Origin: a virus
Reading direction: 5' to 3' (one strand)
IMG/VR virus record: IMGVR_UViG_3300045988_136451
Length of the DNA stretch: 64,000 nucleotides
Notes under the pieces: generated by a model
The model's input: only the letters and a program-made list of their open reading frames with translations
Told to the model about the DNA's origin: nothing
The model's database searches: none
Part shown: piece after piece, positions 18,235 to 58,983 of the stretch
Layout: every line of letters starts with the position of its first letter
Numbering within the stretch: position 1 is the first letter of the stretch
Position numbers and translations under genes: made by a program

Positions 18235-18244
18235 TTGCCCCCCC

Positions 18245-22638: not shown

Positions 22639-22664
22639 TCCGTGCCCCCCCCTATCCATGTCTC

Positions 22665-22680
22665 TCGATTATTTTATCGA
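22665..22680 (-). promoter_or_regulatory. AT-rich palindromic motif upstream of dnaE, overlapping the HNH gene stop
   Basis: TCGATAAAATAATCGA-GAGAC-ATG. The embedded TAAAAT lies 17 nt downstream of an AAGACG -35-like hexamer. Confidence 0.55.
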
Positions 22681-23171
22681 ACGTCCTTGTACGTCTTTCC
22701 ATCGCGCACCTTCTGCACCGTGCCGATGGACACTCCGAACTTTTCGGCAAGGGAGGCGAGCGTTCCGCCTCCCCTTATCTCTAAAACCTGCTCTCGCGTC
22801 AGCTTGCGCTTGTCATGATGCATGTAGTTGCCGTACGGCTCTAGCCCCTCGGCGGCGCGTCGTGCCGCATCGGCCCTGCGATGGCACGCAGTGCACATCC
22901 ACTCGACCTCCAACGGCTTCGCGTAATCGTCATGGTGCGCCTCTATGCGCTTCTCCGGCGCTGTCGCCCCGCATTTTGAGCAAACCTGCGGGTTGACCAA
23001 CACCCCGGCCTTTATGGCCTCATAAACGGCTCTCTGGGCATTCTGCTTAGTTGGGTTCTTTGAGCATGTTTTCAGCCTAGTCCCCAAAACTTTCTCCGGG
23101 TGTTCGAGCTTATACCTACGAACTCGCTCTTTGACCTTTTCTTTGTCAACTAGGTAATACTTGCCTTGCAT
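22674..23171 (-). CDS. HNH homing endonuclease with C-terminal HTH
   Basis: CSKCG...EAHHDDY...WMCTACH is an HNH/zinc motif; LASLAEKFGVSIGTVQKV looks like an HTH. Locally AT-rich codons. Own consensus promoter at 23209-23237. Free-standing between dnaE and ssb. Confidence 0.7.
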   Translation of the reverse strand: MQGKYYLVDKEKVKERVRRYKLEHPEKVLGTRLKTCSKNPTKQNAQRAVYEAIKAGVLVNPQVCSKCGATAPEKRIEAHHDDYAKPLEVEWMCTACHRRADAARRAAEGLEPYGNYMHHDKRKLTREQVLEIRGGGTLASLAEKFGVSIGTVQKVRDGKTYKDVR

Positions 23172-35526: not shown

Positions 35527-36894
35527 GCCGCGAGCGAAGACGTAGACCGCCTCCGATTCTCTCCACTTGCCGTTGACGTACACGCTCGCGAGGCCCTGAT
35601 GCCATCTCGCGCCGTTCGGAACGTCGTAGCGCCATATCAGGCCGCCGTAGTAATCGACGACCGCCTGAACGTCCGCGCCGTTGCGCATATGAACCGCGCG
35701 CCCCTTCGCGTCGTAGGAGCGCAGCGTGAACGTCTGGGAGGTGCGCGGCCTCTGCCGCTTCAAAGCCACCTCGACCGACTTGATTCCGGCCTGCTCGCTT
35801 CGGGCATCGGATGCCTTCCACGAGCGCACGAGGCCGTCAACGCTCCCCACAAGCTCGTAGCGCGCCACGGGGTAGGAGCCGTCTTCCCAGCCGGAGTAGT
35901 AGAACCTCACGGTCTCCCCGGCGCACAGAACCTCGTTCCGCGTTCCCCTGCGACCGATGCACCAGAGCTGCGTCGGGCCGTAGCTGGGTATCTCGAAGTA
36001 GGACACCGCGTCAGACCAAGCGACCTGCTTGCTCCACGCCTGACCGTCGTAGGTGCGGATGCCGAAGAACAGCTTGTCGCCCGTCTTGATGTCGAAGAAC
36101 GACGACGGCTGAACGCTGGCCGACGTGCTGCCGATGCCCTCGACCGCCCGCACGAACTTCGCGTGCTGCGCAACGGTGTCGGGGTTGCGAGCGCCCGACG
36201 GCACCGAATCGCCACGGTAGACGAACAGGTCGTACCCCTTCGCGCCGTTGCAGCGGTTCCACGACACCGCCACGGGCTGCGTGGCGGCTTGGATTATCTC
36301 GATCTTCGGAGGCTCGGCCTTGACATACGACGGGGTTGCGGGGCGCGGGTACGCGCCCTCGTGCCACGTGACGGTGTACATGCCGTCCTTGTTGTTCATG
36401 AACGCGCCGTCCTGCGGGCACGGCCTGCTGGCGTAGTAGCCTTGGCCGTAGCGCCCTTCCCAGTTCGTGATCTCGTTGTCCTCGAAGCTGCCCGTCCACG
36501 GGCGCACGATCATGGGGCATATCGTCAGGTTCTCGTCGTCGGTTCCTATGGGAACGTCCGCGTCGAAGACGGTGTAGGGGCCGTGCCACATGGTGCCGTC
36601 CCGGTCTCCGGCCCACGAGCCGTTAAGCCCCCAGTCGGCGTACTGCCCCCAGAACTTCCGCCCGCTCTTGATGGTCGCGCTCTGGTACACGCCGTTGACC
36701 CAGCACTGGTGCCCGATGGCGTAGCTGAAGAACGAGTTGTAGTACCTCATGCGAACCCAGCACTTTATGCGCACATGGGTGGAGCGCGCGGTGCGGCCCC
36801 ACGTCTCCACGGTGTAGCTGTACATGGTGTTGGGCTGTCCGTTGCTCTGCGTCCAGCCCTCTAGCGGCATGCCTTTGACGAACCATCCCATCAT
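35509..36894 (-). CDS. putative tail-associated (fibre/lectin-like) protein, Trp/Gly-rich
   Basis: 461 aa, W/Y/G-rich with no catalytic motifs. Lies in the structural block next to the fibres. Confidence 0.4.
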   Translation of the reverse strand: MMGWFVKGMPLEGWTQSNGQPNTMYSYTVETWGRTARSTHVRIKCWVRMRYYNSFFSYAIGHQCWVNGVYQSATIKSGRKFWGQYADWGLNGSWAGDRDGTMWHGPYTVFDADVPIGTDDENLTICPMIVRPWTGSFEDNEITNWEGRYGQGYYASRPCPQDGAFMNNKDGMYTVTWHEGAYPRPATPSYVKAEPPKIEIIQAATQPVAVSWNRCNGAKGYDLFVYRGDSVPSGARNPDTVAQHAKFVRAVEGIGSTSASVQPSSFFDIKTGDKLFFGIRTYDGQAWSKQVAWSDAVSYFEIPSYGPTQLWCIGRRGTRNEVLCAGETVRFYYSGWEDGSYPVARYELVGSVDGLVRSWKASDARSEQAGIKSVEVALKRQRPRTSQTFTLRSYDAKGRAVHMRNGADVQAVVDYYGGLIWRYDVPNGARWHQGLASVYVNGKWRESEAVYVFARGKWRTL

Positions 36895-37460
36895 CTCACC
36901 GCCATATCTTCATATCTCCAAACATATCCAGCAGCCGTATGATGTCCACGTTTCCCGCTGCATATTAGGTATATGTTTTGAACGGTCGTCGATACATTTC
37001 TCGCCGCATCCGCAATGGAAGAGAAACGACCGATTTCCTTGCCACTCAACGGGTCTATCTGAACAACCGCCCTGCCACGCTGCTCGGTTTTGCTCCTCCT
37101 CATGCGCTCTTTCGTCGGGGCGTAATTGATATTGTCGGATGCAGTGACCCATTCGAGATTCGACACTCGGTTATTCGACCTGTCGCAATCAATATGGTTT
37201 ATAAAGGGCTTGCCGTCATCGTTCTGAATGAATGCAGCCGCTACAAGACGATGGACAAGCGCATTCTCAACGTTCTTGTTTCGGGTCAGCCGAACCACCA
37301 TGTAGCCGTTGGACATGACCTTCTGCTTTAGCACAATTCCCGCATATTCACGAACCGTGCCGTTCCTGTACCTAACAATTCGGTCAAGACTTCGCACGCG
37401 TCCAAGATCACTCACCTGATAGCAGCCCTCGTAGCCCTTTATGTCGCGCCACTCTTCCAT
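36891..37460 (-). CDS. HNH homing endonuclease (NUMOD4 plus HNH_3 type)
   Basis: WRDIKGYEGCYQVSDLGRVRS (NUMOD4), then HRLVAAAF...INHIDCDRSNNRVSNLEWVTASDN (HNH_3). AT-rich codon island inside the structural operon. Confidence 0.75.
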   Translation of the reverse strand: MEEWRDIKGYEGCYQVSDLGRVRSLDRIVRYRNGTVREYAGIVLKQKVMSNGYMVVRLTRNKNVENALVHRLVAAAFIQNDDGKPFINHIDCDRSNNRVSNLEWVTASDNINYAPTKERMRRSKTEQRGRAVVQIDPLSGKEIGRFSSIADAARNVSTTVQNIYLICSGKRGHHTAAGYVWRYEDMAVR

Positions 37461-37472
37461 CGTATGCATCCT

Positions 37473-44980: not shown

Positions 44981-46864
44981 TTACGCGTCGCGGGAAACGG
45001 AGAACACGAACAGCTCGCTCGCAAGCTCGGTGAGCATGCTTTCCGCGAGAACGTCTATCCCCATGTACACGTGCCTGTCGCGGACGAGGACGGGTGCGTT
45101 CACGACCACATTGACAATGTTTTCAGCGCTCTGCACCTGATCGTAGCCCGTCGCCCTCCCCTTTCCCATGACGGTGAGCAGCCCGGTTGCCCCAAGCCCT
45201 ATGTAGAACGAGCGGTCGTAGTCCGAAACCAAGCCGCCGTCGAGCGTGACCGAGTAGATGTACTCGCGGATGTTCGCTGCGCTCTCGCCGAACAGGCCGA
45301 CGAACGGGTACGGTCGCATCTCCACGGTGTCGTCCACGTAGTATCCGCACCGACCGACGAGGCAGACGTACTTCCCGCCGCTCTCGATTATTTTATCGAC
45401 AACCGCAATCGCGTCGGCCTCCATGTTCGACACCATGAACAGGCATGTGGCGGCGTTCCGGCTGTACTTGTCCTCATGCTTCAGATCGTCATCGAAGAGA
45501 ACCCTCATGCGGTTGCTCGTCTTGTCGATCATGAGCGATGCCATGGAGTACCACGCCTCCATGTACGACACGTTGGCCTCGGTCTGCCAGTTCGCCGCCT
45601 GAAGCGAGCGCATGGACAGCGCCATGCCGTTGTAATCGGAGGCGTTGCGCTCCGATATGCGGTACTTGTCCATCGCGGCCCACAGCTCGATCACCTTCTC
45701 GTCCGATAGAAGGCGGTAGTCGGAGTAGTCGCCCACGACGACCTGCGAGGCGTTGTACTTCGCGAGCACGGAGAACATTCCGTCGGGCTGCGTTATGTCG
45801 GGCACGTCGAGCACGAATACCGGCTTGCACGCCTCCCCGATGCGGCAGCACACGGCGGTCAACGCCTCGAAGCTGCGAAGCTCGCTCTGCTCGTCGGTGC
45901 TCTTCTGGTACTTCATGGGCATGCCCGCATAGGCCCAGCCGTACGTGCCGAAGTCGGACGCTATGCCGCTCCTCGCATACCCGGCACCGTCGGAATCGAC
46001 TAGGCAGTAGGCGTAGTCGGGAACTATTGCCGTGAGGGCCGTCTGCCCTATCTTGGACTTGATCGAGACGCACAGCGCGCGCTGCTCCTCCGCGAGGAAC
46101 GAGCGCCACAGCAGGTAGTCGTCGTCCACCCCGTTGATGACGTAGCGGTCGCTGGGCATGACGCGGTTCCGCTCGTAGAAGTTCCTGTCAGCCGTCGCGT
46201 TGCGGTCGTATCGCAGACCGGCAAGCCCGATGCCGTCGAGGCAGTACCCGTACACGTCGGTTCCGTGCATCGTGCGCAGCTCGTCGATGAGGGCGGTGAG
46301 CGCGTCCTTCGCCCCGGACGGCGAAAACATGCGCGAGTACTCGCCCGTGCTCGACCTCTGCTGGTACGGATGGAAGTCGGGGTTCGTCGTGTCGCTCCAC
46401 AACTCTGACGACACGGCGCACGTCACGGCCACGTTGCGGTGCCTGAAACGGTCGAGCAGCTGCTTCAGAACCGGGTTCTTGCCCAGCCCGTAATCGGCGG
46501 CGACCTCGCTGTCCCAGTAAACCATGCCGTCCTTTGCGACGGTCAGAAGCACCTCGTCGAAGCCTGCGGACGCTATGTCCTCGACCACGACCCGCTCCTT
46601 GCCCACGCAGTCCGCCGCGTTCAGGCGGATGGCGTACCGCATCACGTTCGTCTCGCCGTTGGTGACGCGGTTCCACAGCTTCCACTTGTTCGAGGCGATG
46701 CGCTGGATGAGCCACACTTCGTTGACCTTCGGCGGCTGGTCGAAGCCCGACAGGTCGAACGATATGGTGAGCTTGCCGGTCTGCGTCATGCATGTTATTC
46801 CGTCGCTGCCAACGTTGGTTATCATCGCGGGCAGCATCTCGTTCTTGTTCATGTTCCTCTGCAT
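44981..46864 (-). CDS. hypothetical virion-associated protein (possible glycosidase-like)
   Basis: 627 aa. Carries an internal copy of the palindromic motif (~45384-45399, encoding VDKIIES). Confidence 0.4.
   Translation of the reverse strand: MQRNMNKNEMLPAMITNVGSDGITCMTQTGKLTISFDLSGFDQPPKVNEVWLIQRIASNKWKLWNRVTNGETNVMRYAIRLNAADCVGKERVVVEDIASAGFDEVLLTVAKDGMVYWDSEVAADYGLGKNPVLKQLLDRFRHRNVAVTCAVSSELWSDTTNPDFHPYQQRSSTGEYSRMFSPSGAKDALTALIDELRTMHGTDVYGYCLDGIGLAGLRYDRNATADRNFYERNRVMPSDRYVINGVDDDYLLWRSFLAEEQRALCVSIKSKIGQTALTAIVPDYAYCLVDSDGAGYARSGIASDFGTYGWAYAGMPMKYQKSTDEQSELRSFEALTAVCCRIGEACKPVFVLDVPDITQPDGMFSVLAKYNASQVVVGDYSDYRLLSDEKVIELWAAMDKYRISERNASDYNGMALSMRSLQAANWQTEANVSYMEAWYSMASLMIDKTSNRMRVLFDDDLKHEDKYSRNAATCLFMVSNMEADAIAVVDKIIESGGKYVCLVGRCGYYVDDTVEMRPYPFVGLFGESAANIREYIYSVTLDGGLVSDYDRSFYIGLGATGLLTVMGKGRATGYDQVQSAENIVNVVVNAPVLVRDRHVYMGIDVLAESMLTELASELFVFSVSRDA
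45384..45399 (-). promoter_or_regulatory. AT-rich palindromic motif copy inside coding sequence of gene 44981-46864
   Basis: TCGATAAAATAATCGAGAG encodes VDKIIES in frame. A full 17+ nt match is very unlikely by chance in 64 kb of GC-rich DNA. Confidence 0.4.
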
Positions 46865-46865
46865 G

Positions 46866-48284
46866 TCACTTCTCCCACGAGACCATGCCGGGGAACCGAG
46901 TGTCGCCCTTCTCGCACTGCGGGCACACGAGCGTCACGCTCGTGCTGTACTGGCCCGCGTTCGGGCCTCCGCTGTGCTGCACGTTGGTGACGTACCCGGA
47001 AAGCCCCAAGCTCTTCACCTTCACGCGCATGCCGGGCCAGATGTTCGGCATCCACGTTATCTGCAAGCTCATCTGGTACTGGTTGGCCCAGTTTCGCATG
47101 AACTCGTACAGCGCGTAAAGGAACGGGAGGATGTACTGCGGGTTCGCGTCCGTCCCTCCGCTCGTCCCGCTGTCGTTCGGCTTCTCGATGACGTGCTGAA
47201 GCTGCTTCTTGGCGGGCCTCGCCCCGTAGCGGCGGTACAGCTCGCGCGGCGTGAACCGCCACTCCTCGCCCTCCGGTATGTTGATGAGCTTCTTCAGCAG
47301 CTCGCTCGGCTCGTTCGATATGGCGTTCTCCCCGACATCGTTCAAAACGCCCGACGACAAGGCGGCTGTGTTGCTCTCGATGGACACCACGCCCTGCGTG
47401 AGCGCCCATTGCATGTCGGAGGTCTGGCCGCTGCTTGTGAGGTACTGCCCGCCGGTGTTCACGCCTGCGCAGAACTGATGGCTCACGAACGTGTCGTCGG
47501 ACTGGGTTATCTTCAGGTCGATCAGCTCGATGTCGTCGAGCAGAAGGCACGGCGTGTTGCCAGAAACGCCCCAGTAGTCGGGATACCACGCCATGAAGGT
47601 ACCGTCCGGCCCGGCCATCACCGTGCGCATGGACGAGTTGAATATGTCCTTGACCGTGTTCCACACCGGCTCGTCGTTCGCCAGCGCGCGCTCGCCGACG
47701 AGCAGCTGGGATGCCGCCGCGTTCATCGTGTCGCCGAAGCTCGATGCGAAGAACCACGCCGTCGAGGCGAGGGAGCCTGACGAGGAGTTCGCCCCTCCGC
47801 CCTGCGCCTCGGCCTCCTCGGTGCTGTCAGCATCGCCGCCGTACTCGCTCGCCGTTATTCCGTCCTTGCTCTGAACGTACCTCGGCGTAACAAACAAGAA
47901 GCCGCCGCTGTCGTACACGTTCACCGACAAGTTGTACTTCAGGGCATAGGACGATATTGCGTTGACGGCGTTCAACTTGGTTCGCTCGCCAACGTCGATA
48001 AGGGAGAACTCCCATGCAAGCCCGTAGCCGAAATAATGTATGTACTGCAAGAACTTGACGTTGCCGTCCTCGGCCCACCTCTCGGCGCTCTCCTTTGACA
48101 CGTAGCCTGAATAGCCGAAGTCTATGGTAAGCCCGTTGTAGTTCTTTTCGAGGTCTGCCGCAAACAGGCGACACGCCGCCTCGAACGCGCCTTGGAGGCC
48201 GTTCGTGCCCTCTCCGCGCGTTTCGGCCTCGTTAACCCCCGCGTACTTGTCGTCGTCGGTTGGCACGAAGTACTTCCCTAGCAT
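46866..48284 (-). CDS. hypothetical virion-associated protein
   Basis: Trimmed to MLGKYFVPTDDD (RBS GGAGGA 5 nt; start overlaps upstream stop). Confidence 0.4.
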   Translation of the reverse strand: MLGKYFVPTDDDKYAGVNEAETRGEGTNGLQGAFEAACRLFAADLEKNYNGLTIDFGYSGYVSKESAERWAEDGNVKFLQYIHYFGYGLAWEFSLIDVGERTKLNAVNAISSYALKYNLSVNVYDSGGFLFVTPRYVQSKDGITASEYGGDADSTEEAEAQGGGANSSSGSLASTAWFFASSFGDTMNAAASQLLVGERALANDEPVWNTVKDIFNSSMRTVMAGPDGTFMAWYPDYWGVSGNTPCLLLDDIELIDLKITQSDDTFVSHQFCAGVNTGGQYLTSSGQTSDMQWALTQGVVSIESNTAALSSGVLNDVGENAISNEPSELLKKLINIPEGEEWRFTPRELYRRYGARPAKKQLQHVIEKPNDSGTSGGTDANPQYILPFLYALYEFMRNWANQYQMSLQITWMPNIWPGMRVKVKSLGLSGYVTNVQHSGGPNAGQYSTSVTLVCPQCEKGDTRFPGMVSWEK

Positions 48285-48285
48285 C

Positions 48286-49431
48286 CTATCCTCCGAACTG
48301 GTCGTACGCCGACCGGGCATATGCGATGCGCTTCTCCATCATGGGGACGGAACCGCGCGTGTACACCCGCTCGAACGCCTCCGTTGCCCATGGCAGATCG
48401 GTGATCGCCTTGAACTGGTCGAACGTCATCTTCTCCGCTATCCACGCCTGCGCGCCGTTCGGATACGTGTAAACTCCGTTGCCGGTGAAAGCGTCGAACT
48501 GGGCGGGTGCCTCGCTGACGAAGAACAAGAGCTGCGCCTGTATGTCCGTCCATTCGGTGCCGCGCTCCGACGCGAAGGCGCACAGGTCGCTGAACCGGCC
48601 AGAACCGGCCTCCCACTGAAGCAGCCCGCGTCCGGGGCCTCCGCCTCCTTGGCACGCCGCCGGGTCTACGCCGCTCTCCTGCTGCATGTTCCCGATCACG
48701 CCAGCCGCCGCCTGCTTGCTGAAGCCTTGGCTCATGCAGAAGTTCCACACCACCTCCGCGTTGCTGTTGCCGCTGAAGTCGGCAGCGCCGCCGGACGACG
48801 AGCCTCCGCTTGCGCCGCCTATGGTCGGCCCCGACGTTTGGAGCATCGCGTAAATCTGCGCCACCATGTCCGCGCCTTGGGTGTCCGATAGCTTCGCTTG
48901 GTACATGGATGTCGCCCACTCGATCACGTCGCTCGGTATCTGGCCCACGCTGATCTTCGACGCGGGCCAGTCCGCGACCGCTTGGAGCACCTTGACCCCG
49001 CTCTTCCAATAGCCGCCGTCCTGCTCCGCATCGTCCTGTCCACGGTAGACGAGCCAGAAGCTCTCCTCCAAGCCCGCGTCCCAGTAGAGCTTCTGCAAGC
49101 GGTACAGGACATCGCGCCCCCTTATCTCAACCTCGTCGGTGTTGAGGTTGTAGTAAGGGGCCTTCGTGACGTAGCCCGCGAGGACTTGGTAGCGGTCGGC
49201 CTTGGAGAGGTATATGGCTATCTTGTCCATGGGCATGAGAAGCCCGGTGTACTTCTTCCCCTCGTTCTTCAGATGCAGGATGAAGTCGCTCGAATCGTCC
49301 GTCTTCAGGTTGACGGTGAACCGCGTGATGTCGTCCGAGAGGTCGTACGCGGTCGTCCTCCCGTCGCGCGTCAGCGACACGTTGGCCTCGACCATGGGGG
49401 TGTATGTAAGGATAGCCGTCATGGCTGACAT
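48286..49431 (-). CDS. tail-associated cell-wall hydrolase: conserved N-terminal module plus lysozyme/transglycosylase-like C-terminus (paralog A)
   Basis: N-terminus MTAILTYTPMV...SVGQIPSDVIEWATSMYQAKLSDTQGADMV is shared with 53364-54455 and 54452-55552. C-terminal GVIGNMQQESGVDP...GRGLLQW resembles phage tail lysozyme / lytic transglycosylase motifs. Confidence 0.5.
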   Translation of the reverse strand: MSAMTAILTYTPMVEANVSLTRDGRTTAYDLSDDITRFTVNLKTDDSSDFILHLKNEGKKYTGLLMPMDKIAIYLSKADRYQVLAGYVTKAPYYNLNTDEVEIRGRDVLYRLQKLYWDAGLEESFWLVYRGQDDAEQDGGYWKSGVKVLQAVADWPASKISVGQIPSDVIEWATSMYQAKLSDTQGADMVAQIYAMLQTSGPTIGGASGGSSSGGAADFSGNSNAEVVWNFCMSQGFSKQAAAGVIGNMQQESGVDPAACQGGGGPGRGLLQWEAGSGRFSDLCAFASERGTEWTDIQAQLLFFVSEAPAQFDAFTGNGVYTYPNGAQAWIAEKMTFDQFKAITDLPWATEAFERVYTRGSVPMMEKRIAYARSAYDQFGG

Positions 49432-49472: not shown

Positions 49473-49488
49473 TCGATTATTTTATCGA
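49473..49488 (-). promoter_or_regulatory. AT-rich palindromic motif overlapping stop of C39-like peptidase gene, upstream of hydrolase paralog A
   Basis: TCGATAAAATAATCGA, with the TAA stop inside the motif. Confidence 0.5.
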
Positions 49489-50184
49489 GCGGAGACTGTA
49501 GAAGTAGAGCCACTGCGTGGCGTTAAGCTCCTCATCGGAATAAGGGCGCTGCGAGTTGTCGCCGCTCTTGGGGTCGCGGACGCGAACGTCGCCGTCGAAG
49601 CTCTGCCACAGCAGCACGACGTGGCCGCCGTAGCAGTTGCCCTGCCCGCCGAGCTGCCCGGTCATACCTGCGAACACCACCGCGCCGTCCGCGCACTCCG
49701 CCAGCGCCTCGTCGAGCGTCCAGTAGATTTCGGAGCCGTCGAGGCCGTAAGCCTCCTCCGCGTACGCGCAGAACTTGCCGGGGTCGTTGACCCCATCGGT
49801 CAGGCACGTGTCGCCAACGACCGCCGCGAGGTCGCGCGGGTAGGTGATCTGGTTCGTAAGGTACTCTATCGCCATGGCGGCGCACACGAGGCCGCACCCG
49901 GCCTGCGAGATCGACGAGCCTGCGTACTCGATTCCTCCCCACTGCGGGTCGTCCTGAAGGTACAGCGGCATGTTGTAGCCCGTCGGTATGGCCCTCTGGG
50001 CCTCTGTGGCGGGCGCTGGGAGGTCGTTAGCGTCGAAGTCGAGATAGGGTTCATCTTCGAGCCAAACGGGGGTTCTGGGAGGCTCTGCGTCCGTCTGTGG
50101 CACATCGGAGAAAACCGAATAGCCGATGATCGCCGCGAACAGCGCGGCGACCGCCAGACATTTTATGTAGCCGTTTCGTCTCAT
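49477..50184 (-). CDS. membrane-anchored papain-like (peptidase C39-like) cysteine peptidase, possible SAR-type lysin
   Basis: N-terminal TM/signal-anchor IKCLAVAALFAAIIGYSVF. Then QDDPQWG...SQAGCGLVCAAMAIEY, a C39-like active-site Cys. Its stop lies inside palindromic motif 49473-49488. Confidence 0.45.
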   Translation of the reverse strand: MRRNGYIKCLAVAALFAAIIGYSVFSDVPQTDAEPPRTPVWLEDEPYLDFDANDLPAPATEAQRAIPTGYNMPLYLQDDPQWGGIEYAGSSISQAGCGLVCAAMAIEYLTNQITYPRDLAAVVGDTCLTDGVNDPGKFCAYAEEAYGLDGSEIYWTLDEALAECADGAVVFAGMTGQLGGQGNCYGGHVVLLWQSFDGDVRVRDPKSGDNSQRPYSDEELNATQWLYFYSLRSIK

Positions 50185-50217: not shown

Positions 50218-50637
50218 TCACCCGGTTCGCTCCCACAGCGGCACCGCCACCGACAACGGCATGTTGTTGTGAGGCCGGTTCTGCGCCATGGGCACGTCGT
50301 CCCTGTGGTTCTCCTCGTCGTTGATGAAGCCCCACCCGGAGGTACCGGTGCCTTGGAAGAACTCGACCCCCGACATGCTCGAACCAGAGGCTAGGTTGCA
50401 CAGGAGCGCGTGCGCATGCCACGGAAGCTCCGCAGCGGTGAGCGCGTGCGCGTTCTCCCCGTACCTTCCGCCCGTCCGGTACGTGCCGCCAGCCGCCACG
50501 AGGTACACGCCCTCGTCGTGGCGCTCCCACGTGGTGCCGGGCCACTCCGCGTTCGGGTCGCCCTTGCAGAACACGAACTCGCCGACGGCGTGCGGGCAGT
50601 AAACGGAGCGCTTCGGCCCGAAGAGGATGCTAGTCAC
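50218..50637 (-). CDS. tail-collar-domain (MdpB-like) protein, paralog 1
   Basis: YCPHAVGEF...WPGTTWERHDEG...ENAHALTAAELPWHAH...PHNNMP family signature. GTG start after AAGGAGG. Confidence 0.5.
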   Translation of the reverse strand: MTSILFGPKRSVYCPHAVGEFVFCKGDPNAEWPGTTWERHDEGVYLVAAGGTYRTGGRYGENAHALTAAELPWHAHALLCNLASGSSMSGVEFFQGTGTSGWGFINDEENHRDDVPMAQNRPHNNMPLSVAVPLWERTG

Positions 50638-50649
50638 GATGCGCCTCCT

Positions 50650-51126
50650 TCAGAGCGAGAAGCCCCCCCCCGACGTGCACTTCCACACGTAGGCTGCGAT
50701 GTACGGCGGAACGTTGTTGTGAGGCTTGTCGCCGCCCGTGTAGTAAATCAGGTTCTGCACCCAGTTCGACCACGCCCCCTCCGTGTAGGCCACGGTGCCG
50801 TCGTCCACCCTGTAGTCCCCGGAAGCGCTCATGTTGAACTTCTTCCCGTTCGGATTGTCGGGGGAGTGCGTGTGCCGGGGCATCTCATCGACCGTGAGGA
50901 CGTGCGCGGCCTCGCCGCCCGTGCTGCCGACTGCGTACGCTCCGGAGGCCGCGCCCGCGCACACGAACGTCCCGGCGGCCAAAAGCTCCCACTTCGTCCC
51001 CGGCCATCTTGCTGACGGGTCGGTGTCCGACAGCGTGAAGTACAGGTCTCCCGCGTCGTACGGGCACAAGACCGATTTACCGCCGCCGCTCTGAACCTTG
51101 ACCGTCATAGCGGCATCGCCCCGCAC
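50650..51126 (-). CDS. tail-collar-domain protein, paralog 2 (G9 run at C-terminus)
   Basis: Same family (WPGTKW...AAHVLTVDEMPRHTH...KPHNNVPPYIAAYVWK). G9 run (plus 50663-50671) encodes SGGG, 4 codons before the stop. Confidence 0.5.
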   Translation of the reverse strand: MRGDAAMTVKVQSGGGKSVLCPYDAGDLYFTLSDTDPSARWPGTKWELLAAGTFVCAGAASGAYAVGSTGGEAAHVLTVDEMPRHTHSPDNPNGKKFNMSASGDYRVDDGTVAYTEGAWSNWVQNLIYYTGGDKPHNNVPPYIAAYVWKCTSGGGFSL

Positions 51127-51129
51127 AGA

Positions 51130-51531
51130 TCACGCGGTGCGCCTCCACAGCGGGACGCATACGGAGTACGGCATGTTGTTGTGGGGCTGGCCTCCGCCCG
51201 TGTGGACGGAACTGCTGTCAATCCAGTTGTTGCCAGAAACAGCGGCGTACCTCCCCGTGTTGCCGCCCTTCGACAGCTCGACGTTCCAGTTGTTGCCGCC
51301 GTCGCCGGTGTGGCTGTGGCTCGGAATCTCCTCGATGGTGAGGATGTGCGAGTTCTCCCCACGGTTCGTGAGCGTCTTGAAGTTGTCGCCGGAAGAGACG
51401 AGGTAGGTTGCCTCCTCGTATCTGGCCCATGTGGTGCCGGGCCACTCGCCGTTGGGGTCGAACTCGCAGTGCAGCCACGTTCCAACAGGATGCGGGCAGT
51501 AGTAGCCCTTCCCCTTGACGTTAAGCCGCAT
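51130..51531 (-). CDS. tail-collar-domain protein, paralog 3
   Basis: YCPHPVGTWLHCEFDPNGEWPGTTWARY...ENSHILTIEEIPSHSH...QPHNNMPYSVCVPLWRRTA. Confidence 0.5.
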   Translation of the reverse strand: MRLNVKGKGYYCPHPVGTWLHCEFDPNGEWPGTTWARYEEATYLVSSGDNFKTLTNRGENSHILTIEEIPSHSHTGDGGNNWNVELSKGGNTGRYAAVSGNNWIDSSSVHTGGGQPHNNMPYSVCVPLWRRTA

Positions 51532-51549
51532 GGCGCATCACGGAGGCGG

Positions 51550-51987
51550 CTATGCCCCCCCCCTGATCGTGCGCAGGTTTATCTTCACGGGCCAATTAGA
51601 CCCGTTGCAGGTTCCGTCGACATCGGAGAACGTCACCTTCGTCCCGGATATGGCGGCCCTCGCGCGCCAAAGGCACGAGTTGCCCCCAATCGCGGTTCCG
51701 AAATGGAGGTCTACCGTCTTGCCGTTCGGTGAGTACACGCGGAAGGTCGGGAGCCAAACGCCGTCTTCGTACATGAACTCGAAGTCGAGCCACTGGTAGC
51801 TCGCGGCGCTCGCGCTCAACGCGTACACGTTGCCGTTGCTCAAAAGATGGCTGCCGCTCCACAAGGTCGCTACGCCCTGCTTCGAGTACGGGATGGTCGG
51901 TATCTTCGCGAGCGTGAGCGTCGGTATCTGCGCGATGTTGAGCACGGGCGTTTGAACGCCGGACGAGTTACGGTACTTCAGGTACAT
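51550..51987 (-). CDS. hypothetical protein within the collar-paralog array (unrelated sequence; G9 run at C-terminus)
   Basis: Start MYLKYRNSSGV after AGGAGG. Ends ...RTIRGGA, with a G9 run (plus 51555-51563) in the last four codons. Confidence 0.4.
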   Translation of the reverse strand: MYLKYRNSSGVQTPVLNIAQIPTLTLAKIPTIPYSKQGVATLWSGSHLLSNGNVYALSASAASYQWLDFEFMYEDGVWLPTFRVYSPNGKTVDLHFGTAIGGNSCLWRARAAISGTKVTFSDVDGTCNGSNWPVKINLRTIRGGA

Positions 51988-52007
51988 CTCATGCCTCCTC
52001 TCGGAGG

Positions 52008-52445
52008 CTACGCGGTGCGCCTCCACATATCGACGGAAAGGTACGGGGGCCTGTTCTCATGCGGCTTGTTCCTTCCGGGGAGCCGAACGTACGTATCTTC
52101 CCACTTGACCTTACCGTATTCGCTCGCAATGCCCCAAGCGTCTGCTCCGCCGCTATTGTCGCGCTGCTTCGATTGCAGATTGATTTGCGGCAAAGCGTCT
52201 GCCGACAACGTGACGGAGGCAGCGCCTCCGGTCTTGCCGACGGCGTAATCGCCGGTCGTCGCGCCTCCGCTCGACACGAGGAAGGTGCCCGCAGCGATGC
52301 GCGTCCAAGTCGTCCCCGGCCAGAGAGCGGACGGCGTGACGTTGGATGCGCTGATGTAAACCCCTCCCACCGGGAACGGGCAGAACTGCTGAACGGATGC
52401 TCCGTTGCGCCATTTGAGGACGGACAGGTTAGCCATGCAGACCAC
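52008..52445 (-). CDS. tail-collar-domain protein, paralog 4
   Basis: FCPFPVGGVYIS...WPGTTWTRIAAG...VTLSADALPQ...KPHENRPPYLSVDMWRRTA. Confidence 0.45.
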   Translation of the reverse strand: MVCMANLSVLKWRNGASVQQFCPFPVGGVYISASNVTPSALWPGTTWTRIAAGTFLVSSGGATTGDYAVGKTGGAASVTLSADALPQINLQSKQRDNSGGADAWGIASEYGKVKWEDTYVRLPGRNKPHENRPPYLSVDMWRRTA

Positions 52446-52457
52446 CGCCCGAAGATG

Positions 52458-52870
52458 CTACGCGGTGCGCTTCCACATGTACACGGCGAGCCAAGGCGGC
52501 ATGTTGTTGTGCGCCGCGCCGCGCCGCCGGTATTTGCGATTCCGCCGTCCTGCCACCTGCTGCTGGGCGGCGACGGAGTATGCCACTCCCAGCCCCATGT
52601 GGCGACGTTGCCGCCGTCCTCGACCGCAAGAAGCTGATGATGATGGCTCGGCATCTCGTCGATTGTGAGCACGTGCGTGTTGGAGCCGTACGTATTGTTG
52701 ACCTTGTAGGTGTCGCCCGCCGAGACGAGGTAATGGCCCTCTCCATGCCGATGCCACGTCGTGCCCGGCCAGACCGCGTTGGGGTCGTACAGGCAGAAAA
52801 GGCACGTGCCGACAGGGAACGGGCAGTACTCCTCGAACGACGCGCCTTGGCGGAACTTGATCTTAGCCAC
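52458..52870 (-). pseudogene. tail-collar-domain protein, paralog 5, split by a +1 frameshift
   Basis: N-terminus MAKIKFRQGASFEEYCPFPVGTCLFCLYDPNAVWPGTTWHRH...HVLTIDEMPSHHH is in one frame. The family C-terminus ...AAHNNMPPWLAVYMWKRTA is in the +1 frame. The switch occurs in the GC-rich stretch ACCGGCGGCGCGGCGCGCAC (~52575-52600). Confidence 0.4.
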
Positions 52871-52885
52871 GGGAAGCCTCCCGCG

Positions 52886-53308
52886 CTACGCCGTCCTCTT
52901 CCAGACGTTGACGGAGATATGCAGGGGGTAGTAATCTGCCCCCCCTCCCGTCGCTCTACAGGCATCCATGTCCCAGTTGTACTTTTTATCTTGGGCGATC
53001 CATGGCGGGTAAGAGCCTCTAAGCGTTGTCGTACCAGCCTCGCTGTTGTAGCCGTAATACTCGTGAGTATGCGACGGCATCTGCGCGATGCCTATCTTCT
53101 TCGAGCCTCCGGTTGAACCCGCTGCGGCATAACCGGCCGTTCCGGCGCAAGCCAGTACGCCGCCCGTCAGCTTCGCCCACGAACCGCCCAAGACGGTGGC
53201 GGGGTTCTCCGAGCCGACGGTGAGGTAGAGGCTGTTCACCGGGTACACGAGGTCGAGCATCGTCTTGCCGATGCCGCCCTCCAGATGGAACCCGCTCAAT
53301 CTTGCCAT
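52886..53308 (-). CDS. tail-collar-domain protein, paralog 6
   Basis: Start after AGGAGG. ...KKIGIAQMPSHTH...YYPLHISVNVWKRTA. Confidence 0.45.
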   Translation of the reverse strand: MARLSGFHLEGGIGKTMLDLVYPVNSLYLTVGSENPATVLGGSWAKLTGGVLACAGTAGYAAAGSTGGSKKIGIAQMPSHTHEYYGYNSEAGTTTLRGSYPPWIAQDKKYNWDMDACRATGGGADYYPLHISVNVWKRTA

Positions 53309-53363: not shown

Positions 53364-54455
53364 CTACGCCGCCTTCTCGTAGCGGAAGAAGTGCGTCCAG
53401 CTGCCGGAGATTTTCACCACGGATATCTCGTCGCCCGTCTGGTCTCCGCCCTGCCCGTATATGCCGCCGTCCTCGGCGCTGTGAGCGCCCGCCGTCTCGC
53501 CGTTGCCGATATACCATTCCGTGTGAGCGGCGCGCCACATGATGTCGCCGCGCTTCAGCGAGCCGACGTTGCCGTCGTACGGGTACATCTTCCATCCGAT
53601 GGGCGGAAGAACCTCCTGCATGCGCGTCGTGTTGAACGTCCAGCTTCCAAGCTCCTCGCGCGTCCATCCACCGGCGAGGAGCGAGTAGAAGACCAATGAC
53701 GAGCAGTCGTAGTCGGGGTTCCCGTCGCGGTTCCCCTGACTGTACCCGTGGCTGTCGTCGTTGCATATCTGTATGGCCCACTGCACGGCCTTCTCGACCG
53801 CCTCGTACGAGGCGGTTCCCCCTCCGGCTGACGACGAGCCGCCGGAGCCTATGGCGGGGCCTGACGTTTGCAGCATCTTGTAAATCTGGTTCACCATGTC
53901 CGCGCCTTGGGTGTCGGCCAGCTTGACGCGGTACATCGACGTTGCGAACTCGATCACGTCGTCGGGCAGCTGCCCTATGGCGATCTTCGACGCGTCCCAG
54001 TTGGCGACGTTGGTGAGCACGTTCGCCCCCACGCGCCAGTACTCATCGTGCGTCTTCCACGTCGAGCTGTTCGTGAACAGGAGCTGCTGCGATTCGTACA
54101 GCCCCGCGTCCCAGTAGAGCGCTTGGAGGCGGTAGAGCGCGCACTTCCCGGACATCTCGAAGTCGGCGTTGTAAAGCCGCCAGAAGTCGCACTTGGTGAT
54201 GTACCCGGCGAAGACCGGGTACTCGTCGCCCTTGGACAGGCGTATGACGATTCTGTCCATGGGGGTGAACGCCCCGTTGTACTTCCCTCCCTTGTTCTGA
54301 AGGGACAGGGAGAACGTGGAGCAGCTATCGACGTTCAGGTTTATCTTGAAGCCGGTGATGTCGTCGGTGAGGTCGTACGCGCGCACGGAGCCGTCCGGCT
54401 GGCGCACCGCCACCTCGGCCTTGACCATCGGCGTGTAGGCGAGTATGGCCGTCAT
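53364..54455 (-). CDS. tail-associated cell-wall hydrolase: conserved N-terminal module plus NlpC/P60-like C-terminus (paralog B)
   Basis: N-terminus MTAILAYTPMVKAEV... is shared with paralogs A and C. C-terminal ...YDCSSLVFYSL... resembles the NlpC/P60 catalytic Cys context (YDCSGF). Confidence 0.5.
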   Translation of the reverse strand: MTAILAYTPMVKAEVAVRQPDGSVRAYDLTDDITGFKINLNVDSCSTFSLSLQNKGGKYNGAFTPMDRIVIRLSKGDEYPVFAGYITKCDFWRLYNADFEMSGKCALYRLQALYWDAGLYESQQLLFTNSSTWKTHDEYWRVGANVLTNVANWDASKIAIGQLPDDVIEFATSMYRVKLADTQGADMVNQIYKMLQTSGPAIGSGGSSSAGGGTASYEAVEKAVQWAIQICNDDSHGYSQGNRDGNPDYDCSSLVFYSLLAGGWTREELGSWTFNTTRMQEVLPPIGWKMYPYDGNVGSLKRGDIMWRAAHTEWYIGNGETAGAHSAEDGGIYGQGGDQTGDEISVVKISGSWTHFFRYEKAA

Positions 54456-55552
54456 GGCAGAAGCCCCGGCCTGCACGGATAGGCCTCGTCGAGTATAACG
54501 CCGCCGTTCCAGCCCCACCCGGTGCCCTGCGGCACGTAGGTGTTGCCGGAGTTCACCCATTCCGTCAGCGACCACTCGTGCACGTACCCTATGTTGTCGA
54601 GAACCACGCCGTTGCCGACGTAGATTCCCACATGGCCGTACACGCATCCGGGGTTGCCGGAGTTGTCCCAGCCGTAGCCGAACACGGCTGCTCCGACCTT
54701 GACCTTGCTCCAATCCGTCGATGCGCCCCACGCCCGCGCCGCCTCGCGCGCCGAAGACTTGCGGGGTATCTTGATTCCGGCAGCGTCGAACACGTCGTCA
54801 ACCCACTTCTGGCAGAAGCCGCCCTGCGTGGTTATGCCGTACCTCTCGGAGTTCTTCGCGACCTCGACGATCTTCTTCTGCGCCTCGGTCACGTCGCCGT
54901 CGAACACGTCCCCGCCGAGGCCCCCGATGTCCCCCGTCGCCTCCGTGAAGGTAGGCCCCGACACCTGCAACATCGAGTAGATTTGATTCACCATGTCGGC
55001 TCCCTGCGTGTCGGCCAGCCTCGCATCGTACATCGACAGCGCCCACTCGATGACCTCGGTCGGTATCTGGCCCACGCTGATGCGCTCGGCGGGCCAACCG
55101 GCGACGCTCATCAGGACGTTGGCTGCGGCGCGCCAGTAGCCGCCGTCCTGATCGGAGCTTTCGGCGCTCTGGAAAGTGACAAGCTCGCGAGACGCGAGAA
55201 GGCCGCTGTCCCAGTAAAGGGCCTGCAAGCGCCATAGAACGTCCTTGCCCGTTATGGTGACGGGCTGCGAGTTCAGCATGAACATGGGAACCTTCGTGAC
55301 GTAGCCCGCTAGGACTTGGTAGCGGTTCGCCTTGGAGAGGTATATGGCTATCGCGTCCATGGGCTTGAACGCCCCGTCGTACTTGCCGCCGACGTTCTGA
55401 AGCGTGAGCGAGAACGTGGAGCAGCCGTCGGTGTTCAGCGTCACGGAGAAGTCGGTGATGTCGTCGGTGAGGTCGTAGTACTTGTAGCCGTTCGCCGTCT
55501 GCGCCCTCACCTGCGCGCTCACCATCGGCGTGTAGGCGAGTATGGCCGTCAT
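54452..55552 (-). CDS. tail-associated cell-wall hydrolase: conserved N-terminal module plus CHAP/NlpC-like C-terminus (paralog C)
   Basis: Shared N-terminal module. C-terminal GGFCQKWV...YGHVGIYVGNG is a Cys...His papain-like (CHAP-type) arrangement. Confidence 0.5.
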   Translation of the reverse strand: MTAILAYTPMVSAQVRAQTANGYKYYDLTDDITDFSVTLNTDGCSTFSLTLQNVGGKYDGAFKPMDAIAIYLSKANRYQVLAGYVTKVPMFMLNSQPVTITGKDVLWRLQALYWDSGLLASRELVTFQSAESSDQDGGYWRAAANVLMSVAGWPAERISVGQIPTEVIEWALSMYDARLADTQGADMVNQIYSMLQVSGPTFTEATGDIGGLGGDVFDGDVTEAQKKIVEVAKNSERYGITTQGGFCQKWVDDVFDAAGIKIPRKSSAREAARAWGASTDWSKVKVGAAVFGYGWDNSGNPGCVYGHVGIYVGNGVVLDNIGYVHEWSLTEWVNSGNTYVPQGTGWGWNGGVILDEAYPCRPGLLP

Positions 55553-56776: not shown

Positions 56777-58983
56777 ATGCCCCCGTTGTCCGACTGCATC
56801 TGCTCGCGCCCGTTCTCGACCATGATGGCGAGCACCTTTTCAGCGTCGTCCTGCCACCTCACGGTCAGCGCCACGGGCGTTTCTCCCGTGTCGGAATCGG
56901 AGTAGCCGTACCACGCGCCCTTGTCCTGCCAGTCGAACTTGCCCGACAGGAACGACGCAGCGCCCGTCTGGTTGCCGAGCCAGTCCTTGCCGTACTCGCC
57001 GTAAGACCACGCGGTGTCGCTGAACATGCGGGCCATGCCCTCGTCGGTCATCCCGGCCATGTCCTCTGCGGTCACTTCGCCGGAAAGCTCCATGGCCTGC
57101 ATGAAGATGGCCTTCTCGTCGTCCGACAGGCTCGCGTAGTCCTTCGACAGGATGTCCTTCAGAACCGCGTCGCCCTTCTTGTCGCCCATGCTAAGGCCGC
57201 TCACGTAGTTGGACATCCCGCTGACCTCGATGATGCCCGCCTCGGAGTACGTGTTGATGCTCGATGCCTCGGTGCTTCCGCCAAGCTCCTTCGCACGTTC
57301 GAGCATGGAGTTCACGCCGTCGCCGCCCACCGATTCCTGCTGGGCGCGGTTCGCGCCGCCCACGAGAACGTCGGACAGCATGTCGAACACCCCGTCGGGG
57401 TCTTCTATGAGGCTCATTGGAAGCTGCTTCATGCCGAACAGGGACGCGAGCTGCTGCTGCACGCTTATCTGCTTCGCCATGCCGTCGATGCCGAGGCCGC
57501 TTGCGCTCTTCAGCTCGCCCACCACGCTGTTGAACTTGTCCCGGTCGCCGCTCATGACCGCGCCGATGAGCGCTTCCACGTCGCCGCCCTTCGTCTGCGC
57601 GGCGTACCCGACCGTCTGCTGTATGGCGGCTGCGTACGCCTGACCGGTGTCCATGCCCTGCGCGATGTTCTGCGACACGTTGTTCTGGAACATGGGGTTG
57701 CTCCCGTACGCGCTTATGAAGCCGTTGGCGGCGCTGTAGGTGTTGCCGCTCGCGTCGCCGAAGAAGCGGGTGAGGTCAACGCCGACCTCCTGCGCCTCGA
57801 CCGACGAGCCGGTAAGCCCCTCCATGGTCTTCGCGAAGCCCTCCTGCTGCTCCTGTATGGACGACAGGGACGCGCCCGTGCTCTCCGCCACCTGCGCGAG
57901 CGTGTCGAACTTCTCGTTCAGGTAATCGACGCTCTTGCCGCCCTTCACGACGGCCTTCACGTACTCGTCGGTCGCCTTCGAGGCGGACAGGCCGCGCTCC
58001 TGCGTCGCGTTCACGACCCAATCGTATCCCTGTCCGTACGTCTCGCTGCCGTAGGTCGCGCCGCCCGACATGAGGCCCTGCTGAATCGTCTGCACGTCCT
58101 TGTCCGAGAGGTTGGTCGTGAACTCCGTGAGCTTCGACTGGATGCCCTGCTCCACGCCGACGTTGAGGTTGCCGGTGCCGCCGGTCGCCTCCAACGAGGC
58201 GTTCTTCAGACCTTGGAACTGGTCGATGCCGCTCTCCACGAGGTTGAGACCCGCAACGGCGGTGCCGAGCACCGCGCCCACGGGGCCGAGGAACTTCAGC
58301 ACGCCGCCCGCCTTTGAAAGGACGTTGGCGATGGTGCCCATGCCGCGCGTGCCGCCAGCCCCCAGAGCGCCTATGACGGACGTAGCGCCCTGCGCGACCT
58401 CCGCTGCGGTTCCCGCGCCCTGCATGACGCGATCTGCCGTGCTAGGCCCTTCATAGCTCTCCACAAGCCTATCGAAGGAGCTTTGCTGCGCAGACGCGCT
58501 GCCCTGACGCACGACGTTCGAGTACAGCTTGTCCATGAACTCGTCGTCGCGCGCCCGCATGTCCTCCGCCATCTGTCGGCGGTCGTCGTCGAGGGCGCGT
58601 ATGAACTCATCGACCTTCTTGGTTCGCTCCGCCTGCTCCTTGTCGATCTTCTCCTGAAGACTGGCGAACGTCTCCCTCGTCTCGCGAGCGGCATCCGTCT
58701 GCTCCTCAACCGCCTTGGTGAGTTCGGGGGTTTCGAGAACCATGGCCGCGCCGGTGCCGTTGCCGTCGATGCCGACGCTGCCGCCTAGGTCGCGTATCTC
58801 CTCGATGTAGTCTTGGAACACCCCTATCTGCTTGGTCATCTTATCGACCTCGGAGACGAGGGAGGTTGCCGCCTCCTCGACAACGCTCTTCGACGCGTCG
58901 GCGCGCTGCACCAGCTCGCCCATGCGCTGCGCAACGTCCGTGGAGGACGTTACGGGCCTGCGTACCACGTTGTCTTCGGCCAT
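56773..58983 (-). CDS. tail tape measure protein
   Basis: 736 aa, A/G/Q-rich with long predicted helical stretches (IGALGAGGTRGMGTIANVLSKAGGVLKFLGPVGAVLG...). Sits immediately downstream of the G/GT chaperone pair. Confidence 0.65.
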   Translation of the reverse strand: MAEDNVVRRPVTSSTDVAQRMGELVQRADASKSVVEEAATSLVSEVDKMTKQIGVFQDYIEEIRDLGGSVGIDGNGTGAAMVLETPELTKAVEEQTDAARETRETFASLQEKIDKEQAERTKKVDEFIRALDDDRRQMAEDMRARDDEFMDKLYSNVVRQGSASAQQSSFDRLVESYEGPSTADRVMQGAGTAAEVAQGATSVIGALGAGGTRGMGTIANVLSKAGGVLKFLGPVGAVLGTAVAGLNLVESGIDQFQGLKNASLEATGGTGNLNVGVEQGIQSKLTEFTTNLSDKDVQTIQQGLMSGGATYGSETYGQGYDWVVNATQERGLSASKATDEYVKAVVKGGKSVDYLNEKFDTLAQVAESTGASLSSIQEQQEGFAKTMEGLTGSSVEAQEVGVDLTRFFGDASGNTYSAANGFISAYGSNPMFQNNVSQNIAQGMDTGQAYAAAIQQTVGYAAQTKGGDVEALIGAVMSGDRDKFNSVVGELKSASGLGIDGMAKQISVQQQLASLFGMKQLPMSLIEDPDGVFDMLSDVLVGGANRAQQESVGGDGVNSMLERAKELGGSTEASSINTYSEAGIIEVSGMSNYVSGLSMGDKKGDAVLKDILSKDYASLSDDEKAIFMQAMELSGEVTAEDMAGMTDEGMARMFSDTAWSYGEYGKDWLGNQTGAASFLSGKFDWQDKGAWYGYSDSDTGETPVALTVRWQDDAEKVLAIMVENGREQMQSDNGGM

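Follow-up and report, generated by a model that had tools for sequence, protein, structure and literature searches.

Slippage-prone repeats at fixed places in a cassette of T4 gp10-type head genes of an LE2-3-like Eggerthella lenta myophage

Introduction

Why should a phage carry a row of small, related tail-tip genes with slippage-prone repeats set into them? The question is raised by a 64,000-nucleotide (nt) stretch of viral DNA, IMG/VR record IMGVR_UViG_3300045988_136451 (the window, in what follows), in which positions 50218-53308 hold a cassette of seven short minus-strand genes, here called w1 to w7. Six of them are paralogs of 133-152 amino acids (aa), one of which is frameshifted, and w4 encodes a protein of another fold. 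The explanation that we favour, and to which we give a probability of roughly 0.6, is that the repeats are slipped-strand contingency loci acting on a modular set of receptor-binding heads in a myophage resembling Eggerthella phage LE2-3.

Over about 53 kb, the window and LE2-3 share 97.7-99.7% identity, with about 99.5% as the summary figure. LE2-3 (MW679026) is a myovirus of 112 kb whose isolation host was E. lenta DSM 2243; searches by phage name and by accession found no publication on it. The published lytic E. lenta phage PhiKL11, being a siphovirus of 44 kb, was rejected as the source. For comparison we assembled 25 loci, comprising the window, LE2-3 and 23 from human-gut and other assemblies that were reached through exact-protein look-ups and one metagenome scan. 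A search of IMG/VR with a flanking 235-aa protein returned one locus.

Results

The cassette encodes tail-tip heads of the T4 gp10 type

All six paralogs match the Pfam family PF21939 Gp10_C, the C-terminal domain of T4 gp10. The proteins w2, w5 and w7 score above the gathering cut-off of 27 bits, and w1, w3 and the N-terminal part of w6, which are clear paralogs of the others, lie no more than 2 bits under it with E values of about 1e-5 (Table 1). In hhalign the family profile matches the C-terminal domain of T4 gp10 (94.5%, E 7.5e-8), and the similarity to gp10 residues 406-602 is seen at the level of both profile and fold. In PHROG the paralogs match tail and tail-fibre proteins at the C-terminal ends of the latter, while a sequence search of solved structures with w5 gave chance-level matches only (best E 0.07).

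A first-pass annotation of the window had labelled the six genes as tail-collar (MdpB-like) paralogs. None of eight query segments matched PF07484 Collar at E <= 1, and when the PVG motif of the family was set on residues 335-359 of the T4 gp12 collar (IPVGAIMMW…) the alignment was non-significant (hhalign probability 1%, E 0.049), and on these two grounds a Collar/MdpB (COG4675) identity is rejected. Since PF21939 is matched and PF07484 is not, we conclude that the domain is a gp10/gp11/gp12-type head and that the collar label is unsupported. The heads of T4 gp10, gp11 and gp12 are regarded as related.

Most of the rest of that description of the array holds. Gene coordinates and a common skeleton (CP.PVG, WPGTTW, H.LT..EMP.H.H, PHNNMPP and W(K/R)RTA) agree with six adjacent paralogs, one of them frameshifted, and one interleaved gene; pairwise identities of 22-43% show that the paralogs are indeed highly diverged; and the PF21939 matches, together with a position in the baseplate module (see below), identify them as versions of a phage tail-tip domain. 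No further Gp10_C copies were found outside the cassette in the window or in LE2-3. A number of fibre proteins hold a metal on their threefold axis by means of H.H motifs, and the H.H motif of the paralogs stands at what we take to be the position at which related phage fibre proteins do so; w5 has QINLQ in its place. The interleaved gene, w4, had been called unrelated. It does differ in fold, but its modelled structure resembles the receptor-binding heads of Staphylococcus phages K and phi812, and it is thus itself predicted to be a receptor-binding head of another kind. The cassette therefore comprises six heads of the T4 gp10 C-terminal fold family and one that, by modelling, has the receptor-binding head fold of phages K and phi812.

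Each cassette protein amounts to about one head domain behind a short N-terminal peptide of about 15-20 residues (xxLKYRxGSGG-like). The N-terminus of w4 (MYLKYRNSSGV…, or MTTIKVKSGSS… in other alleles) resembles those of w6 (MAKIKFRQGAS), w2 (MTVKVQSGGGKS) and the LE2-3 proteins LE23_36-39 (MAKLKYRGSGGVVELLD). Because this peptide is common to different head types, we infer that it docks them to one baseplate site, and it may be regarded as a putative common docking element.

The genes LE23_36-39 form a second cluster, of four paralogous tail genes encoding about 150 aa each, on the minus strand of LE2-3 (L002:16824-18902 in LE2-3 coordinates, outside the window), and their N-termini are of the MAKLKYRGSGG type found in the cassette. 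Upstream of each gene, the coding strand reads TTGACA, 7 nt, C8 or C9, and (T/A)GTTACGAT. This site is promoter-like, with the poly-C run inside the -35/-10 spacer, which is the classic layout of transcriptional phase variation.

Repeats lie at fixed places and determine the reading frame

The first-pass annotation had placed two G9 runs in the cassette, and both stand exactly at the positions given for them (Table 1). Three further repeats were absent from it: a G7 run in w7, a (GGCGC)3 pentanucleotide repeat in w6 and a G5 run in w1. In the window as a whole there are 10 G8 matches, compared with 3.0 ± 2.4 in shuffled sequences, 2 of 100 of which reach 10. Three of the nine G/C runs of at least 7 in the window fall inside the 3.1-kb cassette (binomial p = 0.008); the corresponding figure for LE2-3 is 5/16 inside its 4-kb cassette (p = 2e-4), rising to 9/16 when the LE23_36-39 cluster is included (p = 4e-8). 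LE2-3 has tracts at 70747, 71244, 72067, 73029 and 73921. Across the 25 loci, G6-G10 runs recur everywhere, including in the more distant lineages L009 and L011/L012, and they occupy two main sites, one at a Gly-Gly-Gly before the last conserved strand (profile position ~121-123) and the other directly after the end of the domain or the stop codon. An additional run is present in an N-terminal GGG in L011/L012.

The computed products show what a change in length would do at each site. For w7, G7 or G10 gives the full head, G8 a 148-aa protein that lacks the last strand, and G6 or G9 a read-through product of ~292 aa across w6. The w6 gene is split over two frames, with the N-terminal part in one and the C-terminal AAHNNMPPWLAVYMWKRTA in the other; two GGCGC units restore TGGAAHNNMPPW, so that deletion of a single unit yields an uninterrupted 135-aa paralog. 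A change of the w1 tract from G5 to G4 or G6 likewise breaks the frame. At the 3' ends, w4 is 145 aa with G9, 155 aa with G10 (ending 10 nt into w3) and 293 aa with G8, the last form running through the whole of w3 out of frame, whereas w2 acquires short tails in every case (152 aa with G9, 157 aa with G8, 159 aa with G10), the G8 stop codon overlapping the GTG start of w1. The w2 and w4 products at G8-G10 thus agree with the earlier expectation of changed C-termini, or of read-through into the neighbouring gene, upon slippage. The proposal that the two G9 tracts are themselves the phase-variation switch fares less evenly. Their lengths do differ between loci with identical flanks, as described below, but both tracts follow folded domains, and the tracts whose length sets a head to ON or OFF lie inside the genes, namely the w7 G7 run, the w6 pentanucleotide repeat and the w1 G5 run.

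A role of the cassette G9 tracts as the Shine-Dalgarno sequence of the next gene was considered but does not fit, since they lie ~23-25 nt before the next start and w1 has its own AAGGAGG. Promoters and terminators within the cassette showed no excess over shuffled sequences. The sole promoter-like site (50221-50193) falls in the 3' end of w1 and precedes the following gene (49477-50184).

Tract lengths differ between otherwise identical sequences

The lengths of the tracts vary at the DNA level between genomes. At tract A, the internal run of the w7-type gene, G9 was found four times, G6 twice and G8 and G10 once each, with G7 as the window allele. The other internal tracts behave similarly: tract F has G9 four times and G7 once, tract G (in the LE23_97-type gene) G9 three times and G8 once, and the w1 tract G5 eleven times, G6 four times and G4 twice. 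At the 3' ends, G9 and G8 were counted 3 and 2 times for tract B (w6-type gene), 6 and 5 times for tract C (w4), and 13 and 3 times for tract D (w2), LE2-3 having G8 at the last of these.

When only loci with identical flanks of 100 nt on either side are grouped together, differences persist: 8 and 6 for tract A; 9, 9 and 8 for tract C; twelve of 9 and two of 8 for tract D; 9, 9 and 7 for tract F; 8, 9, 9 and 9 for tract G; and nine of 5, three of 6 and two of 4 for w1. These results indicate that tract length changes faster than point substitution occurs.

Proteins in the assemblies show the same variation. The w7 allele occurs as the 140-aa form (G7) on at least 42 contigs, and the exact window protein on 42; natural variants are of 292 aa (G6, 3 contigs), 300 aa in the same shifted frame (2 contigs) and 147 aa (G5, 2 contigs). 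For w4, protein endings correspond to G9 (RGGA, then stop), G10 (RGGGIAASVMRHAA, then stop) and G12 (RGGGA, then stop; one protein), with G10 protein clusters of 71, 35, 20, 52 and 12 members. The w2 protein is found as 152 aa (G9; two sequence variants, on 80 and 269 contigs) and as 157 aa (G8; 9 contigs). The frameshifted w6 allele of the window is also present in the independent contigs L017 and L020, and many paralogs in the consensus sequences are out of frame, G9 tracts being the usual site.

Could these differences be errors of sequencing or assembly? Homopolymers of 8-10 are error-prone in library PCR, the clean single-base insertions or deletions that separate the window from LE2-3 in near-identical sequence are all in homopolymers of at least 8, and the 50-kb metagenomic contig L006 ends inside a cassette G run (L006:1-8). 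Such an end is what a tract of mixed length within the sample would produce by breaking the assembly graph. Errors would not account for out-of-frame alleles that recur across independent studies and different assemblers, such as tract A at G9 in the isolate genome and in three metagenomes or (GGCGC)3 in three assemblies, nor for length variants that are each backed by many contigs, nor for variation at G4, G5 and G6, where Illumina errors are negligible. We therefore consider an artefact to be very improbable.

Sequence downstream of out-of-frame tracts is conserved

Downstream of tract A, the OFF allele (G9) and the ON allele of the window (G7) encode the same 17 residues and differ by 5 synonymous and 0 non-synonymous changes, and downstream of tract F there is 1 synonymous and 0 non-synonymous difference. 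Restriction to synonymous changes argues against decay, and fits either a frequent return to the ON state or decoding by frameshifting.

The second of these possibilities would make G9 the normal state, with the full head produced by programmed -1 ribosomal frameshifting on G_GGG_GGG or by an RNA polymerase that slips and adds a G, and it would set a low, fixed stoichiometry for the heads with internal tracts. Apart from the purifying selection seen in the -1 frame, it accounts for the fact that most internal tracts are G9 or G6, a single frame class that needs exactly -1, and the G_GGG_GGG of the G9 tracts fits the X_XXY_YYZ slippery pattern, although this is a formal match only. It does not account for DNA-level length variation amid identical flanks that includes the in-frame G7 and G10 and the +1-class G8. 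Its 0-frame product would be undefined, running for ~150 codons through the next gene, and, since G9 is the most frequent length in non-coding and 3'-tail tracts as well, the preference for it is not tied to frame. Moreover, the 70 nt after tract A of LE2-3 fold with -23.5 kcal/mol compared with -22.5 ± 3.3 in shuffled sequences (z -0.31), and thus offer no stimulatory structure. Recoding as the principal explanation is, on this balance, doubtful.

Neutral decay, in which the paralogs are dispensable duplicates whose frameshifts gather at the most mutable sites and whose tract polymorphism is without consequence, is only slightly more probable and in our view still unlikely. It would be in keeping with a paralog number that varies between loci, with a plaque-purified LE2-3 that has two out-of-frame paralogs and yet infects its host, and with a window-type w6 allele that has been seen in the frameshifted form only (three assemblies). 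Against this, paralogs that are 22-43% identical, and lineages that are ~56-70% identical, have retained long G runs at matching codon positions. The runs persist despite a preference for GGC over GGG as the glycine codon (63% and 21%, respectively, in the long genes of the window), although point mutation should erode neutral runs; the differences after OFF tracts are synonymous only; and natural sequences include both ON and OFF versions of one allele.

Head number and head loops are exchanged between close relatives

The cassette always lies between the same flanking genes, and carries from 5 to 13 Gp10_C paralogs among the 25 loci, L026 having 13. The window is without 835 bp present in LE2-3 (LE23_96 and most of LE23_97), and the junction falls in the repeated 3' end common to the paralogs, the difference having arisen by recombination between paralog 3' ends. 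A chimera, P0172, joins the N-terminus of w3 to the body of w1 at WPGTTW and is present on 44 contigs. In addition, no nucleotide similarity to LE2-3 is detectable (by blastn for w7) in the central loop of w6 (52514-52644) or of w7 (52945-53070), between flanks that are 92-99% identical to it (92-98% for w7).

These exchanges bear on whether the paralogs might be fixed structural parts, each with its own place at the periphery of the baseplate in the manner of T4 gp10, gp11 and gp12, with adaptors for larger fibres among them. Of the relatives with solved structures, the C-terminal domain of T4 gp10 is the closest, and it acts as a structural connector without binding a receptor; a downstream 1462-aa protein with a weak F5/8 type C match could be the main fibre. 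For fixed parts, however, one would not expect copy number and composition to differ between near-identical phages, central loops to be swapped wholesale, or an interleaved protein that models as a known receptor-binding fold to have the same N-terminal motif, and frequent OFF states would not be tolerated. We regard a purely structural role as unlikely.

Tail-associated lysins flank the cassette within the baseplate module

Read along the transcribed direction, the gene order is tail sheath, a 736-aa protein, two tail-associated lysins, the cassette, the 235-aa protein (49477-50184), a third lysin, two large proteins of unknown family, a gp25-like protein, Baseplate_J and the 1462-aa protein. 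This position, between the lysins and the gp25-like and Baseplate_J genes, places the cassette inside the baseplate module, in line with the earlier placement of the array between tail hydrolases and a lysin-like peptidase. The 736-aa protein has no Pfam match and is, from its position, probably the tape-measure protein. Among the neighbouring proteins are ones of 484 aa (46866-48320) and 627 aa (44981-46864). Weak matches were obtained for the 235-aa protein (Peptidase_C39-like) and for the 1462-aa protein (F5/8 type C domain, E 0.0019, under the Pfam cut-off). The coordinates of the cassette genes, repeats and lysins are given in Table 1.

Table 1. Genes and repeat tracts of the head cassette and the flanking lysins, in window coordinates. 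Scores are for PF21939 unless stated otherwise.
Feature	Position	Strand	Description
Lysin	48286-49431		Phage_lysozyme2 catalytic end; N-terminal region common to three lysins
w1	50218-50637	-	Gp10_C-type paralog; 139 aa; 26.7 bits; PHROG 5717 E 1.4e-8
G5	50367-50371	-	inside w1; polymorphic in relatives
w2	50650-51108	-	Gp10_C-type paralog; 152 aa; 46.5 bits
G9	50663-50671	-	short tail past last conserved residues of w2 (…VWKCTS-GGGFSL, then stop)
w3	51130-51531	-	Gp10_C-type paralog; 133 aa; 25.2 bits; PHROG 24267 E 1e-12
w4	51550-51987	-	different fold; modelled as beta-sandwich receptor-binding head; 145 aa
G9	51555-51563	-	last codons of w4 (RGGA, then stop)
w5	52008-52436	-	Gp10_C-type paralog; 142 aa; 55.3 bits, E 1.8e-14
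w6	52458-52870	-	Gp10_C-type paralog, out of frame; N-terminal part 26.1 bits
(GGCGC)3	52511-52525	-	pentanucleotide repeat; w6 frameshift site
w7	52886-53308	-	Gp10_C-type paralog, intact in window; 140 aa; 50.0 bits, E 7.5e-13
G7	52939-52945	-	inside w7, GGG motif before last strand ADYYPLHISVNVWKRTA; in frame
Lysin	53364-54437		Amidase_5/ELLD catalytic end; N-terminal region common to three lysins
Lysin	54452-55552		NlpC/P60 catalytic end; N-terminal region common to three lysins

The three lysins are paralogs that bracket the head cassette. They have in common an N-terminal region of ~210 aa (MTAILAYTPMV…; PHROG 2810) and differ in their catalytic ends. The phage family is abundant in the assemblies, the exact w1 protein being present on 644 contigs of up to 122 kb and homologues of w5 on metagenomic phage contigs of 50-133 kb; several hundred metagenomic contigs of ~115-120 kb belong to it.

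The G tracts have left their mark on the annotation of LE2-3, in which an out-of-frame head and the next gene are merged as the 306-aa 'tail protein' LE23_93 (L001:9891-10811) and LE23_97 is called with a wrong C-terminus; both miscalls result from the tracts. Locus tags 94 and 95 are absent.

Homopolymer runs were also noted elsewhere in the window. A G8 run (18238-18245) stands right after the recA stop codon and 5 nt before the next ATG, and is G9 in LE2-3; another (22645-22652, coding strand) covers codons 3-5 of the long open reading frame (ORF) for DNA polymerase III alpha, where LE2-3 has G9 and its annotators chose a downstream start. These two runs may be ribosome-binding sites of variable length. 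A palindrome, TCGATTATTTAATCGA, adjoins two LE2-3 G runs, at ~57040-57060 and at ~100850-100865 (after the major capsid gene and before the polymerase gene), and a variant of it, cgataaaataatcga, is found at ~22665-22685 in the window; it may be an operator or promoter element. In sequence that is otherwise ~98% identical to LE2-3, the window has C9 in place of C5 at 3412-3420 and T8 in place of T9 at 3320-3327.

Two regions of the window interrupt its alignment with LE2-3. One is at 36891-37469, where an HNH homing-endonuclease-like gene (NUMOD4 and HNH_3) is inserted among tail genes. The other, 4917-11561, has no LE2-3 match; it carries a 405-aa ORF (5185-6402) with the GGSPCQSFS motif typical of C5 cytosine DNA methyltransferases, and a G8 run at 8731-8738 inside another ORF.

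Discussion

The results describe a set of head genes in which slippage-prone repeats (G5-G10 runs and a single pentanucleotide repeat) occupy fixed sites. We propose that polymerase slippage during replication would change the lengths of these tracts. A change at an internal tract would remove or restore the last strand of a head and so switch it OFF or ON, while a change at a 3' tract would alter the C-terminal tail or send ribosomes out of frame through the next gene. A phage population would then always hold variants that show different subsets of heads, and such a mixture could act as bet-hedging against a host with a switching surface polysaccharide. E. lenta has been found to escape another phage by reversible switching of capsule gene clusters (PMC13131767), which offers a plausible selective reason for switching of heads. 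Under this proposal the cassette proteins, from their homology, would be carried in the virion and bind receptors, the heads would be alternative rather than co-assembled tips, and switching would probably be fast and adaptive.

Several points weigh against this explanation. The length variation observed is that between the consensus sequences of genomes. By frame, roughly 15 of the internal tracts need -1, 4 are in frame and 4 need +1, and a predominance of the -1 class is not what a simple switch that favours the ON state would predict. G9 is the commonest length whatever its coding consequence, and both of the G9 tracts flagged at the outset lie past folded domains, so that the functional effect of their variation is uncertain. 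Location in the virion, a trimeric state and a shared N-terminal anchor are suggested by short motifs and homology. Among the possible mechanisms we nevertheless place contingency switching first, followed by neutral decay, recoding and sequencing artefact in that order; whether the heads are fixed structural parts is a separate question.

A more elaborate form of contingency switching can be envisaged, to which we attach only tentative belief. Head-only modules with one docking site and a shared peptide might constitute a combinatorial library that shuffles itself through switching, coupling and the formation of chimeras. Internal tracts would switch single heads; read-through from 3' tracts would occlude the next start, so that neighbouring heads tend to be expressed alternately; and recombination at the WPGTTW and PHNNMPP motifs would make new chimeras. 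With the poly-C promoter spacers of the second LE2-3 cluster, this would amount to a multi-layer phase variation that mirrors capsule switching in the host.

The nearest precedent is provided by the polyG-controlled receptor-binding genes of Campylobacter Fletchervirus phages (Sorensen et al. 2021, Cell Rep 35:109214, cited in PMC10877375 and PMC10579305). In those phages, G runs of variable length inside host-recognition genes reportedly generate ON/OFF subpopulations, and the host phase-varies its own capsule. The likeness drawn here is one of tract features. It can be seen that the two systems also differ. The host here is a high-GC Gram-positive gut actinobacterium; there are many stand-alone, head-only paralogs, whereas the Campylobacter phages reportedly have a few large receptor-binding proteins; and the tracts are at a conserved Gly triplet and at 3' ends able to couple neighbouring genes. 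Contingency loci have also been described in T2 and T4, where homopolymer slippage gives reversible frameshifts and bet-hedging (Gomez, Barrick and Waters 2025, bioRxiv 10.1101/2025.10.21.683753). Those cases mostly concern escape from host defence and not host recognition, and simple repeats are under-represented in coliphage tail-fibre genes (0.77x expected; bioRxiv 10.1101/2025.10.21.683753). This is the opposite of the pattern seen here, in which repeats are concentrated in a tail-tip cassette. In contrast to these precedents, slippage here is joined with paralog recombination and loop replacement.

The heads themselves can be set beside T4 gp10, gp11 and gp12 (PDB 2FKK, 1EL6), to which they are linked by Pfam family, profile comparison and best fold match. 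Each of these T4 proteins is encoded once, is large (602, 219 and 527 aa) and has a long N-terminal part, whereas the proteins described here are head-only and present in 5-13 copies. Similarly, w4 differs from the receptor-binding proteins of Staphylococcus phages K and phi812 (PDB 5M9F, 9EUF) in that it has 145 aa and no long shaft, at 17% identity. As with the invertible tail-fibre cassettes of Mu (G segment) and P1 (C segment) and the diversity-generating retroelement of Bordetella phage BPP-1, the variation would be phage-encoded and would affect the receptor-binding end within a population. Its source differs from theirs, being repeat-length change and paralog recombination; no invertase, inverted repeats or reverse transcriptase were noticed, no search having been aimed at these.

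E. lenta is prevalent in the gut and metabolises drugs, and the phage family is abundant in human gut metagenomes, as the recurrence of one unchanged cassette protein on several hundred contigs attests. Annotation pipelines mis-call the genes of the cassette, the LE23_93 fusion and the locus-tag gaps of LE2-3 being examples. Heads of ~135 aa with defined variable loops offer a compact system in which to study the evolution of receptor specificity. Should the heads prove to be switchable receptor binders, any one phage stock would be a mixture of host-range variants, which would bear on phage isolation, host-range assays and therapeutic use. The cassette would then be a phage-side counterpart of the reversible capsule switching of its host (PMC13131767), and would extend polyG-controlled host recognition from Campylobacter phages to the phages of Gram-positive gut bacteria.

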